Origin: Candidatus Saccharimonadota bacterium | GTDB taxonomy: Bacteria; Patescibacteriota; Saccharimonadia; CAILAD01; BJGX01 | NCBI GenBank assembly: GCA_046350735.1 | Contig: JAXLZU010000001.1 | Span: forward strand, 76,530 to 140,529 | Direction: 5' to 3' | DNA: 64,000 nucleotides | In this document: positions 16,435-48,484 of the stretch, piece after piece | How positions within the stretch are numbered: the first letter of the stretch is position 1 | How the letters are laid out: each line of letters starts with the position of its first letter | The notes under the pieces: generated by a model | What the model was told of the DNA's origin: nothing | Seen by the model: only the letters and a program-made list of their open reading frames with translations | Databases searched by the model: none | Position numbers and translations under genes: made by a program

Positions 16435-17670
16435 CTAGGTAAGTAGATATTGATTGCCAAGAAGCCAAGGACTGTCTGGAGTTTGAGGACGATAACGAAT
16501 GTGCTGCTGAATCATTTCTACTTGCTTCGTATACATATCTCTTGGTGTAGCGCGGGTAATACTAAGGTGTCGTCGTACTAAGCGTTGAATGTCTTTGAAG
16601 AAACCAGAATAATCACCTGAGCGATACTCAGTACTAGCAAGCGTCATGGTAATAATTCGCAATAGTAACCGTTGCTGGTCTTTTTCTGCATGTTTTAGCT
16701 CGGAGAGAAGCATATCTAACTCACCTAGTTGTTGTTCGGCAAGTAGAGCTTCAACAAGCATTTCTGCAGCAATTGGTGAGTCACTCTGAGTAAGGCAATG
16801 GTGGTTTATCCAGACCTTTGCCCAGAAGTAGGGCTTTAGACCGAGTCTGTCGAGTCGCTTGGTAGCTTCTCTCATAAAAGCATTAACACGTTTTCTCCCT
16901 ACGCGTACACTACTCAGCATAGTCTGCAGATCCCAAATATCGGCCGCGATTGTTTCGGCAAAGGTGGTACAATTAAGATAACGATAACGCAGAGACTTCT
17001 CAGAGAGAGCATCGTACTCTAGTTGCAATCGCAGGCGAGCAATAGCTGCTGTTAGTCGAGCAGCATTGGCACTAGGGTTGTATCGAGCGAGCGAATCGCG
17101 AAACCCAACAGAATTTTCTACTCGACTGCGCGCATCTTTTCTAAGAAGTGTTCTACACAGCTGCATATCTGATGCAACTAGCCTAAGCAAATCAGCTTCG
17201 CCACTAGAATCTTGCAAGAGTTTAAACCAATCATCGAGCAGGCGCTGTCGAACTTCTTGCACAGTTTCTCTACGAGTTGTATCAAGATCAGAACGCAATG
17301 CAATATTTCTACTACCTTGAATACCAGAACGAATACCAGACTCTACCGTCACAAAGGTCTCATGCTCACTAAGTGGTGGTCGAGCCCTAACGTAAATAAG
17401 CACTTCACCAACCAAATCCATATCTTTAATGTCTGATACTTTGGTAACTACCCAATACTTCTCAGAGATATTTCTACCAGGCCTTACTAGGATCTGTCTA
17501 GCTCGAATATTGCGCGAACGCAGCTTTTTACCAGTAATAATTGGCTGTACCTCAACCCCAAGAGCATAGCTAAAGCGCATATCTTCTTGCACTGTCAATG
17601 TTTCTCCCTTTGTAGGTTCTCTCTTGAGAGCGAACGTATAATACCATGTAACACCTTGACTTTCAACCAT
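16435..17670 (-). CDS. hypothetical protein (411 aa, Arg-rich, no recognisable domain)
   Basis: Long ORF with coding-like composition, GC-richer than surroundings. No motif I can assign. Confidence 0.55.
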   Translation of the reverse strand: MVESQGVTWYYTFALKREPTKGETLTVQEDMRFSYALGVEVQPIITGKKLRSRNIRARQILVRPGRNISEKYWVVTKVSDIKDMDLVGEVLIYVRARPPLSEHETFVTVESGIRSGIQGSRNIALRSDLDTTRRETVQEVRQRLLDDWFKLLQDSSGEADLLRLVASDMQLCRTLLRKDARSRVENSVGFRDSLARYNPSANAARLTAAIARLRLQLEYDALSEKSLRYRYLNCTTFAETIAADIWDLQTMLSSVRVGRKRVNAFMREATKRLDRLGLKPYFWAKVWINHHCLTQSDSPIAAEMLVEALLAEQQLGELDMLLSELKHAEKDQQRLLLRIITMTLASTEYRSGDYSGFFKDIQRLVRRHLSITRATPRDMYTKQVEMIQQHIRYRPQTPDSPWLLGNQYLLT

Positions 17671-17719
17671 ATCAACAGATATAATCGTGTGGTTAGAGGT
17701 ATTTTAAAAGCAGAAGAAA

Positions 17720-18034
17720 ATGAAAAAAGATACTCGAAAATATATTGATAGGCGGGATTATCTAATTGCTGCAGTTGCCAAAAGACGTAAGGTACTAAAA
17801 GAAAAATCAGTACAATACAAAGGTGGTAAGTGCGAGCTATGTGGCTACGAGAAATGTATTGAAGCCTTGGATTTTCATCATAAAGATCCAAAAACAAAGA
17901 AATTTGGCATTAGCCATAAAGGATATACTCGCAGCTGGCAGGATGTGCAAGGCGAACTAAATAAGTGTGTTTTGGTTTGTGCAAATTGCCATAGAGAGAT
18001 AGAAGCAGGAGTATCAAACATTAATCCGGGGTAG
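17720..18034 (+). CDS. HNH endonuclease
   Basis: CELCGY...HHKDP...CANCH (HNH/zinc-ribbon motif). Stop codon lies inside the 5' acceptor stem of the following tRNA. Confidence 0.85.
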   Translation: MKKDTRKYIDRRDYLIAAVAKRRKVLKEKSVQYKGGKCELCGYEKCIEALDFHHKDPKTKKFGISHKGYTRSWQDVQGELNKCVLVCANCHREIEAGVSNINPG

Positions 18035-18336
18035 CTCAGTGGTAGAGCAGTTGGCTGTAAATTGATGCAGCGTTTAGTGGTAACACTAAGATGAAAATAG
18101 GGTGAATTGCGGGAAGCCTAAGTGAGAATATGGTAATCCGCAGCCAAGCCAAGAAGAGCAAAGGTTTCTTGGAAGGTTCAGAGACTAGAGGGTGAGACTC
18201 AACAATAATCTCTCAGATAGCGCCCTACATCCGTCATGGCGGATGATGATATAGTCCATTCCCATTTGAAAATTTGGGGTAGATGTAACCAATTGGTCGC
18301 TGGTTCGAATCCAGTCCCCGGAGCCATAGTACTTAT
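18025..18336 (+). tRNA. tRNA-Asn(GUU) interrupted by a group I intron in the anticodon loop
   Basis: 5' exon 18025-18058 TCCGGGGTAGCTCAGTGGTAGAGCAGTTGGCTGT. 3' exon 18296-18336 TAACCAATTGGTCGCTGGTTCGAATCCAGTCCCCGGAGCCA. Joined sequence gives a 75-nt cloverleaf with anticodon loop CUGUUAA (GUU), closely resembling bacterial tRNA-Asn. CCA is encoded. Confidence 0.85.
18059..18295 (+). mobile_element. group I self-splicing intron (ORF-less), inserted between anticodon-loop positions 35 and 36
   Basis: 5' exon ends in U and pairs with internal guide GCAGC (18068-18072) to form P1 with a U.G wobble. Intron ends in G. Core elements UUGCGGGAAGCC, UAUGGUAAUCCGCAGCCAAG, P7 5' strand CAGAGACUAGA and P7 3' strand AUAUAGUCC match the Tetrahymena-type group I core. 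Confidence 0.8.
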
Positions 18337-18350
18337 GCTTAAAAGACCCA

Positions 18351-18376
18351 ACCGGGTCTTTTTTGATATGATGTTG
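18351..18376 (+). terminator. rho-independent terminator after tRNA-Asn
   Basis: AAGACCC-AACC-GGGTCTT hairpin plus TTTTT. Confidence 0.6.
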
Positions 18377-18378
18377 TC

Positions 18379-19128
18379 ATGTCAATTTACGAGGCCATTA
18401 TTTTTGACCTAGATGGCACTGCCATAAGCAGTGAGCCCAATGCTGTTCCTTCTGACAAAGTAGTTAAGGCAGTTGAAGATGCACAAAAATCGATGCATTT
18501 GTGTGCAGCGACTGGCCGCTCAATAACAAATTCAAAGTATCTTTTAGATGCTCTAAAACTAAATAGTCCATGTGTAATTTCGGCTGGCACCCAAATTGTT
18601 AACCCCAAAACTGAAGAGATTTTGTGGGAGGCAACGATTGACGAAAAAGATGTGGAAAGTGTTTTAGAAGTTTGCAAGCCTTACAATTTTGAAATTTTGT
18701 CTGGAACAGAACTTGTTGGCGAAGGTGCTGCTGCAGCCGAGAGAAAGCCCCATACAACTAACGTGCTATACATTATGGCTGTAAGCAAAACCGATGCTGA
18801 AGTAATATCAAAAGCTTTATCAGGAATTAAAGGCATATCATCAAGCGAAGTGCCGTCATGGGTAGAACATGGAGTTGATATTCACATTACTAACAAAGAA
18901 GCCACGAAAGAGCACGCTGTTGAGAAATTACTAGATATTATTGGCGTAGATAAAGACAAAGTTATTGGAGTTGGTGATGCCGACAACGATGTGCACTTAT
19001 TTAAGTCTGTAGGGCATAAAGTTGCAATGGGCAATGCAACTGATAGACTAAAAAAACTTGCAGACGAAGTAGCACCGTCGGTCACAGAAGACGGACTGGC
19101 TGCAATTATTCAGAAGTACTCAACATAA
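18379..19128 (+). CDS. Cof-type HAD-IIB phosphatase
   Basis: IFDLDGT motif I. GDADNDVHLF motif IV. 249 aa. Confidence 0.85.
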   Translation: MSIYEAIIFDLDGTAISSEPNAVPSDKVVKAVEDAQKSMHLCAATGRSITNSKYLLDALKLNSPCVISAGTQIVNPKTEEILWEATIDEKDVESVLEVCKPYNFEILSGTELVGEGAAAAERKPHTTNVLYIMAVSKTDAEVISKALSGIKGISSSEVPSWVEHGVDIHITNKEATKEHAVEKLLDIIGVDKDKVIGVGDADNDVHLFKSVGHKVAMGNATDRLKKLADEVAPSVTEDGLAAIIQKYST

Positions 19129-41884: not shown

Positions 41885-41960
41885 GGGCCCGTAGCTCAGT
41901 GGTTAGAGCAGTCGGCTCATAACCGATTGGTCCCTGGTTCAAATCCAGGCGGGCCCACCA
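41885..41960 (+). tRNA. tRNA with CAU anticodon, elongator type; resembles tRNA-Ile2 (lysidine) more than tRNA-Met
   Basis: GGGCCCGTAGCTCAGTGGTTAGAGCAGTCGGCTCATAACCGATTGGTCCCTGGTTCAAATCCAGGCGGGCCCACCA. D-loop and variable region resemble E. coli ileX. C4-G69 and C5-G68 present. Confidence 0.85.
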
Positions 41961-47439: not shown

Positions 47440-47516
47440 TGGTGGCTGGAGCTGGAATTGAACCAGCGACCTCAGGCTTATGAGTCCCGCGCTCTAACCA
47501 ACTGAGCTATCCAGCC
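47440..47516 (-). tRNA. tRNA with CAU anticodon, elongator tRNA-Met-like
   Basis: Minus-strand GGCTGGATAGCTCAGTTGGTTAGAGCGCGGGACTCATAAGCCTGAGGTCGCTGGTTCAATTCCAGCTCCAGCCACCA. D-loop AGTTGGTTA as in elongator Met. One A-G mismatch at the base of the anticodon stem. Confidence 0.78.
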
Positions 47517-48409: not shown

Positions 48410-48484
48410 CGCGGGGTAGAGCAGTGGCAGCTCGTCGGGCTCATAACCCGGAGGTCGCAGGTTCGAATCCTGCCCCCGCTACCA
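48410..48484 (+). tRNA. initiator tRNA-fMet(CAU)
   Basis: CGCGGGGTAGAGCAGTGGCAGCTCGTCGGGCTCATAACCCGAAGGTCGCAGGTTCGAATCCTGCCCCCGCTACCA. Unpaired C1-U72. Three consecutive G-C pairs closing the anticodon stem. CCA encoded. Confidence 0.9.

Follow-up and report, generated by a model that had tools for sequence, protein, structure and literature searches.

What is a small gene for a putative nuclease doing in front of, and partly inside, a transfer RNA (tRNA) gene that is itself split by a group I intron? The question is raised by a locus at positions 17720–18336 of a 64-kb stretch of contig JAXLZU010000001.1 (Candidatus Saccharimonadota bacterium), which was analyzed as a whole and is called the window here. 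At this locus, an open reading frame (ORF) of 104 residues related to HNH endonucleases runs into a gene for tRNA-Asn(GUU), and the tRNA-Asn gene carries an ORF-less intron in its anticodon loop. We propose, with moderate confidence, that the nuclease gene and the intron are partners, in that the HNH protein is probably an externalized homing endonuclease and the ORF-less intron is moved by it in trans (collaborative homing). The anatomy of the locus, the relatives of the nuclease in bacteria and phages, and a related locus that lacks both elements bear on this proposal and on its rivals.

When introns are allowed, ARAGORN finds tRNA-Asn(gtt) at 18025–18326 on the + strand and places a 227-nt intron behind nucleotide 34, corresponding to canonical position 35/36. 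The 5' exon (18025–18058, positions 1–35) ends with U35, and the 3' exon (18286–18326) extends from U36 to the encoded CCA. Joined together, the two exons fold into a 75-nt cloverleaf of tRNA-Asn(GTT) with encoded CCA, consistent with the first-pass annotation of this DNA, which had joined the halves to a canonical tRNA-Asn. The spliced product is identical at 75 of 75 positions to the intron-less tRNA-Asn of two other loci, L127 and L161 (loci compared here are designated by L and a number). The ends of the exons and of the intron (exon ...GGCUGU, intron ...GAUG, 3' exon UAACC...) fit the rules for group I introns, placing the insertion unambiguously between U35 and U36. The intron occupies 18059–18285 (+), and its 227 nt are ten fewer than the 237 nt first assigned to it. 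Default-mode ARAGORN and the Rfam tRNA model both miss this tRNA-Asn. A second intact tRNA-Asn gene, which the first-pass annotation had regarded as a reason to doubt this one, is not found by ARAGORN within the 64-kb window.

The insert is a group I intron by several lines of evidence. A covariance-model search, proposed as a check when the locus was first annotated, gives a match of RF00028 (Intron_gpI) at 18048–18278 (+) with 98.5 bits, compared with a gathering score of 50 (E = 3e-24), and the match spans the full model (1–253). In the P1 helix, exon residues GCUGU (18054–18058) pair with the guide GCAGC (18067–18071), and U18058 forms a wobble pair with G18067 at the 5' splice site. The terminal base of the intron, G18285, directly precedes the 3' exon. 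P2 is located at 18073–18090, and the P7 strands GACUA (18183–18187) and UAGUC (18252–18256) are complementary. The wobble pair, the terminal G, and the P7 pair had each been recognized in the first reading of the sequence. In an RNAalifold analysis of the window intron and nine other ORF-less introns, 26 of 50 pairs show compensatory changes, and the covarying pairs belong to P2, P3, P4/P5, P8, and an additional hairpin located between P7 and P3'. All ten introns retain the U.G pair at the 5' splice site; the P7 strands are invariant in this set, hence P7 contributes no covariation signal. The extra hairpin (alignment columns 150–153 with 173–176) falls within a stretch of 31 nt that the Rfam model lacks and fits subgroup IA, and the original description of the core as Tetrahymena-like is a loose comparison. 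As originally noted, the ORF listing contains no credible ORF inside the intron. A P10 pairing of the 3' exon with the guide region is not evident by eye.

The intron itself is of an already known kind, experimentally validated in close relatives. Although an intron at this position of tRNA-Asn had been thought undescribed, Williams 2020 (bioRxiv 10.1101/2020.01.27.920355) mapped group I introns at tRNA-Asn 35/36 computationally, and Nakagawa et al. (preprint bioRxiv July 2025; mSystems 2026, PMC13011429) reported group I introns at position 35/36 of tRNA-Asn(GUU) in 15 of 95 complete Patescibacteria genomes. Nakagawa et al. assigned 25 of 28 introns at this position to subgroup IA and demonstrated precise self-splicing in vitro for two representatives. 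One of the introns spliced in vitro, that of GCA_016700035.1 (Saccharimonadia), is 76.8% identical to the window intron (189 of 246 aligned columns); in the exons, 70 of 75 positions match, with no difference in the anticodon arm. Self-splicing of the window intron is therefore expected from this 77%-identical homolog. Nakagawa et al. also found HNH (PF01844) endonucleases encoded in four long tRNA-Asn introns. They searched for endonuclease genes only within introns longer than 500 bp and did not mention the genes flanking the tRNA; they concluded that most of these introns lack endonuclease genes and hence are rarely transferred (PMC13011429).

The ORF upstream of the tRNA gene (17720–18034, +) has 142 homologs with E ≤ 1e-3, the best with E = 1e-64, and many of them share 60–70% identity and are 100–120 residues long. 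An alignment of 47 members has 14 invariant residues (G35, C38, Y43, H53, H54, K60, F62, E79, C83, C87, N89, C90, H91, and E93), including zinc-binding and catalytic residues, in the pattern CxxC...HH...N...CxxCH (C41 of the CxxC pairs is not among the 14). The first-pass annotation had identified the 104-residue ORF and its stop codon correctly. Its HNH label is not borne out by the single protein, for which Pfam and NCBIfam return no significant match (PF01844: 15.7 bits, cut-off 21.4, E = 0.016), but it is upheld at the level of the family, in which 46 of 47 members match PF01844 with E ≤ 1 (best 4.7e-6). In the PDB, the family profile best matches the HNH (En) domain of the group II intron reverse transcriptase 6me0 (E = 8e-6), and it also matches McrA. 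The AlphaFold2 model (predicted local distance difference test score, pLDDT, 91) has a strand-strand-helix core of the beta-beta-alpha-metal type; among PDB structures, Foldseek ranks HNH/beta-beta-alpha-metal nucleases highest, all with E ≥ 0.085 and none significant. Databases label the relatives as "hypothetical protein".

The ORF is under purifying selection. The ratio of nonsynonymous to synonymous substitution rates (dN/dS) is 0.085, with dS 0.77, between the window protein and its 89%-identical counterpart in L001, and 0.12 between the window and L015. Two pairs of intron-encoded HNH genes give 0.09–0.15.

The last 10 nt of the HNH ORF overlap the tRNA gene, and its stop codon TAG (18032–18034) coincides with tRNA residues U8-A9-G10. 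These residues are near-universal in tRNAs and read TAG; therefore, an ORF that enters a tRNA gene in this frame stops there. The stop codon is also on tRNA positions 8–10 in L010 (99% identity), L001, L211–L213, and L210 (68% identity). In L011 and L012, the stop codon abuts the tRNA, and a second Saccharibacteria clade has a spacer of 41–71 nt between ORF and tRNA. The overlap is therefore lineage-specific and not obligatory.

A sigma-70-type promoter, TTGACT-18 nt-TATAAT, is located at 17656–17685 (+), just upstream of the ORF. It has 11 of 12 matches to the consensus and is the only strong + strand site found by the promoter scan in 17300–18600; it is conserved in L001, L011, and L012. The origin of this promoter is suggested by L127 and L161, in which a tRNA-Asn identical to the spliced window product has neither intron nor HNH gene. 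L127 is syntenic with the window: a glycosyltransferase gene (60% amino acid identity), a glycosyl hydrolase gene (55%), a hypothetical gene, tRNA-Asn, a terminator, and a HAD hydrolase gene follow in this order, with the tRNA-Asn promoter (TTGACC-18 nt-TATAAT) about 20 nt upstream of the tRNA. The two sequences were aligned piecewise, as two-sequence MAFFT could not place the two long insertions. The tRNA promoter and leader of L127 and L161 align just upstream of the HNH start codon in the window (local score 38, reached in 1 of 500 shuffles), indicating that the HNH ORF sits between the native tRNA promoter and tRNA +1. As judged from this alignment, the site at 17656–17685 is the native tRNA-Asn promoter, now predicted to drive the HNH ORF as well. 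Downstream of the tRNA, an intrinsic terminator (AAAAGACCC-AACC-GGGTCTTTT and then a T run; 18341–18365, +) was read from the sequence and folded with RNAfold; a consensus scan for terminators misses this hairpin because its stem reaches into the T run. Promoter, HNH gene, intron-bearing tRNA-Asn, and terminator thus probably form a single transcription unit. Intron-less sites of this kind are widespread: exact matches to the 23-bp intron-less junction GCAGTTGGCTGTTAACCAATTGG occur on at least 120 contigs in metagenomes, among them L127 and L161. Potential homing targets are therefore common.

The relatives of the HNH protein in bacteria link it to this particular intron. An intron-bearing tRNA-Asn adjoins the gene in all three homologs for which genomic context was inspected individually. 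A scan of one genome per GTDB species yielded 516 relatives, and the best 80, together with the window, were classified by arrangement. In 62 loci, the ORF is inside a 506–711-nt intron of tRNA-Asn at position 35/36, and the encoded proteins share 57–70% identity with the window protein. In 11 loci, the ORF precedes a tRNA-Asn whose short intron lacks an ORF, as in the window; in two, it is convergent with such a tRNA-Asn; in one (L056), it is beside an intron-less tRNA-Asn; and eight loci, mostly at contig ends, are unclassifiable. Among these best 80, all loci with the ORF outside the intron carry the intron except L056. The outside forms come nearly all from metagenome-assembled genomes (MAGs) labeled Saccharibacteria, in two clades and the convergent pair, and the loci closest to the window are titled Candidatus Saccharibacteria MAGs. 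The inside forms (L013–L089) come from MAGs labeled Patescibacteria, Omnitrophota, Bacteroidota, Planctomycetia, Elusimicrobia, and Gamma- and Deltaproteobacteria; this host range of HNH-containing introns is wider than the Patescibacteria-only range of complete genomes (PMC13011429), but binning errors are possible, and many of the MAG contigs break off a few hundred bases or less from the HNH gene or the tRNA. About half of the inside loci are called tRNA-Thr(UGU/CGU) with an intron at 33/34 by ARAGORN, which is the two-base artifact described by Nakagawa et al. (PMC13011429).

Inside and outside forms share the same intron framework. In the inside forms, the ATG is 6–106 nt past the 5' splice site, the sequence for the C-terminal tail traverses the guide GCAGC and P2, and the stop codon is the TGA of the J2/3 motif UGAAAA. 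The ORF therefore fills the P1 loop. GCAGC is at intron position about 303–338 in the inside forms and 5–11 in the outside forms, and its distance to the P3 motif is constant, 34 nt in both. This spacing is the only result taken from a scripted search for P1 covariation across loci, which was crude because the regular expression for the P3 motif often matched inside the ORF. In neighbor-joining trees of about 90 columns, computed without support values, the outside forms nest among the inside forms of Patescibacteria, which suggests that the HNH ORF moved out of the intron.

Two loci of Saccharibacteria MAGs illustrate how the ORF might have left. In L011 (4304–4605; CAYZYH010000021.1), an 82-residue GIY-YIG ORF (PF01541, E = 1e-15) lies between the HNH gene and tRNA-Asn. 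It ends ...ATT CCG GGG TAG, with the stop codon on tRNA positions 8–10. A decayed 5' part of a tRNA (TCCGGGGTAGCTC...GGTAGAGTAGTT) precedes the GIY-YIG ORF and a complete tRNA follows it; the intron of this tRNA is 397 nt long, with an insert of roughly 170 nt before P3'. We tentatively suggest that regeneration of a complete tRNA on the 3' side of an ORF, followed by decay of the old 5' fragment, would yield the arrangement of the window. In L056 (2200–2792; CAYPSR010000080.1), the HNH gene is followed by 9 nt and an intron-less tRNA-Asn. A 5'-exon-like remnant (GGTAGAGCAATTCGTTGT) joined to an intron-like start (GGAACATT) is located just before the HNH ATG, with a score reached in 0 of 300 shuffles, and a duplicated 3' half lies downstream of the tRNA. 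L056 may be an intermediate in the exit of the ORF from the intron; alternatively, its short contig may be misassembled. In the window, a search upstream of the HNH gene for a degenerate 5' exon found none (best local score 13, shuffle p about 0.2).

The family is also present in phages. IMG/VR phage contigs contain at least 565 relatives with 48–68% identity, inside tRNA arrays (L214–L293 were sampled). Among 65 non-duplicate loci, 30 have tRNA-Asn as the first tRNA downstream, and every other isotype occurs at most three times. The last base of the ORF coincides with tRNA position 10 in about 20 phage loci. HNH relatives are found in 421 records of deposited phages as well. In the set L294–L296, the HNH gene of Yersinia phage fHe-Yen9-04 precedes tRNA-Asn, that of Bacillus phage Bastille is flanked by tRNA-Asn on either side, and the HNH ORF of Salmonella phage Sl26 overlaps tRNA-Ile. 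Rfam finds no group I intron in the tested phage loci. ARAGORN "intron" calls in two of them, L218 and L223, are unconfirmed by Rfam, and the arrangement of the window is not claimed for phages. In a combined tree, likewise computed without support values, 63 of 65 phage sequences are outside the bacterial clade, and the outside forms of Saccharibacteria nest among the intron-encoded bacterial forms instead of the phage forms.

Two further features of the window were noted. A 411-residue ORF at 16435–17670 (−), divergent from the HNH/tRNA promoter, matches nothing in Pfam or NCBIfam; an unannotated gene for 372–387 residues is at the matching position in L001, L211/L212, and L127. Three tRNA genes with a CAT anticodon (41885–41960, +; 47440–47516, −; 48410–48484, +) are called tRNA-Met within 7 kb and presumably encode the initiator tRNA, the elongator tRNA, and tRNA-Ile2.

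A homing cycle at this locus could operate as follows. The intron would excise by the guanosine-initiated two-step reaction, giving a functional tRNA-Asn. The HNH protein would nick or cut intron-less tRNA-Asn genes, and recombinational repair from the window locus would copy the HNH gene and the intron together, because they are about 35 bp apart. As the intron splits the recognition sequence, the host copy would be protected, and the insertion would be harmless since it splices out. The overlap with the tRNA suggests a further step. Cleavage by ribonuclease P (RNase P) at 18024/18025 would remove the HNH stop codon, so that processed leaders would be non-stop messages. Maturation of the tRNA would thus compete with translation of full-length HNH protein and keep the output of the nuclease low. 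The first-pass annotation had proposed a free-standing homing endonuclease co-transcribed with its target gene; the shared promoter and the 62 of the best 80 relatives encoded inside this very intron strengthen that proposal, and the action of the nuclease remains the predicted part of it.

Several observations weigh against this cycle. The nuclease activity of the HNH protein, its target site, its mobility, and the effect of RNase P are all predicted; the window protein is below the Pfam threshold and its Foldseek E-values are not significant. The inside-to-outside direction is drawn from the neighbor-joining trees of about 90 columns, which have no support values. Inheritance within the clade appears stable and vertical (dS 0.77 between the window and L001, with conserved flanks), and a domesticated role would likewise fit strong purifying selection in which no recent transfer is evident. 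Phage relatives reside beside intron-less tRNA-Asn genes with no apparent self-harm, and in the Saccharibacteria MAG locus L056 the HNH gene also adjoins an intron-less tRNA-Asn; immunity thus does not obviously depend on the intron, and the enzyme may have a target other than the 35/36 site.

These observations lend themselves to different explanations. The HNH gene and the intron could be independent neighbors that both exploit tRNA-Asn, the former a phage-type nuclease gene that spreads itself and the flanking tRNA DNA, intron or not, and the latter an immobile passenger inherited vertically. The intron-less phage loci, including those beside other tRNAs such as tRNA-Ile in Sl26, point in this direction, as do L056 and the limited intron mobility argued by Nakagawa et al. 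(PMC13011429). However, 62 of the best 80 relatives are encoded inside this intron, which indicates a shared history; the outside forms of Saccharibacteria group with the intron-encoded forms and not with the phage forms (in the tree without support values); the loci of the outside type carry the intron in every case but L056; and an HNH gene that ends about 24 bp before the insertion site would be co-converted with the intron anyway. We therefore consider it unlikely that the two are independent. Another explanation keeps the linkage and drops the mobility, in that the HNH protein would have been domesticated, either to aid folding or splicing of the precursor or to act as an addiction module against loss of the intron. 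A dN/dS of about 0.09 over a dS of 0.77, similar to or below the values of the intron-encoded forms, is compatible with such a role, as are the stable linkage within a clade in which protein identity falls as low as 68% and the predicted expression from the own promoter of an essential tRNA. On the other hand, the homologous Saccharimonadia intron splices without protein in vitro, and all metal-binding and catalytic residues are kept, which argues for selection on nuclease chemistry. To our knowledge, no splicing helper of the HNH type has been described. Domestication thus appears quite improbable to us.

That the ORF represents a gene in decay or an open frame arising by chance, with only the intron-bearing tRNA functional, could be argued from the lack of a significant Pfam or NCBIfam match for the single protein and from relatives named only as hypothetical. 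It is hardly credible in view of the 142 homologs with E-values down to 1e-64, the 14 invariant residues, the strong purifying selection, and the confident structural model (pLDDT 91). Collaborative homing by an externalized nuclease accordingly remains the explanation that we favor.

The value of the finding resides in the arrangements of the nuclease gene and not in the intron itself. One HNH family exists in three arrangements, namely beside intron-less tRNA-Asn in phages, beside an ORF-less intron, and within the P1 loop. It is conceivable, and we put it forward tentatively, that these form a natural series for the joining and separating of nucleases and group I introns and that at least some "endonuclease-less" introns of Saccharibacteria are mobilized in trans by a leader nuclease throttled by RNase P. 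With one small, universally conserved target, they would also offer a tractable system for how a nuclease combines with an ORF-less intron, for which previously few phage genes were available. In at least two clades labeled Saccharibacteria, the cognate nuclease gene is directly outside the tRNA; if the nuclease is active, these introns would still be mobile. The published conclusion of low mobility covered the interiors of the introns and not the flanking genes (PMC13011429). In addition, as standard tRNA finders miss this tRNA-Asn or call its relatives tRNA-Thr and the small ORF is labeled hypothetical, genome completeness and tRNA complements are misjudged in these bacteria.

The window can be compared with several known systems. 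One is that of the tRNA-Asn introns of Patescibacteria (PMC13011429), with which the window intron shares the gene, the insertion site, the U at −1, the terminal G, and the size of the ORF-less class (about 225–235 nt), without essential difference in the RNA. The window HNH gene and the HNH genes in the four introns probably belong to the same family. The difference is in their position, since the HNH genes of Nakagawa et al. are intron-encoded whereas that of the window is outside both intron and tRNA, upstream of +1. A nuclease gene that lies in the tRNA leader, external to the intron, and overlaps the tRNA is undescribed in the tRNA-Asn intron literature cited here.

With the free-standing endonucleases of phage tRNA regions, the window shares a small nuclease gene among or abutting tRNA genes. 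Examples include SegB of T4, a GIY-YIG enzyme (PMC2330249), and HNH genes in the tRNA arrays of mycobacteriophages and mycobacteria (PMC5966550, PMC6582537). Unlike the window, the phage copies tested here accompany intron-less tRNAs, and the annotated phage examples inspected are longer (148–166 residues). In the cited literature on these endonucleases, we found neither the specific association with tRNA-Asn nor a stop codon formed by U8-A9-G10.

I-Ssp6803I, encoded in a cyanobacterial tRNA-fMet group I intron (Bonocora and Shub 2001, cited in PMC3984707), likewise combines an intron in a bacterial tRNA anticodon loop with a homing endonuclease targeting the anticodon region. It is a PD-(D/E)XK enzyme, its tRNA is tRNA-fMet, its site is 33/34, and its ORF is inside the intron; the window HNH differs in all these respects.

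The mechanism proposed here is that of collaborative homing, reviewed by Hausner et al. 2014 (PMC3984707). Known cases are the intron of the T3/phiI-type DNA polymerase gene (Bonocora and Shub 2009) and the psbA intron of cyanophage S-PM2 with F-CphI (Zeng et al. 2009; both in PMC3984707), as well as T4 mobE with I-TevIII (PMC2790892). In these cases as in the window, a nuclease gene is next to a gene with an ORF-less self-splicing intron, and relatives of the nuclease are found inside the intron elsewhere; for the window, cleavage at the insertion site is a prediction. The phage systems involve protein-coding genes of phages, whereas the window involves a tRNA gene on a bacterial chromosome, and, unlike the phage nuclease genes, the window ORF overlaps its presumed target gene and is predicted to use its promoter. 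Finally, the tree of the window family suggests that the nuclease gene moved out of the intron and not into it.

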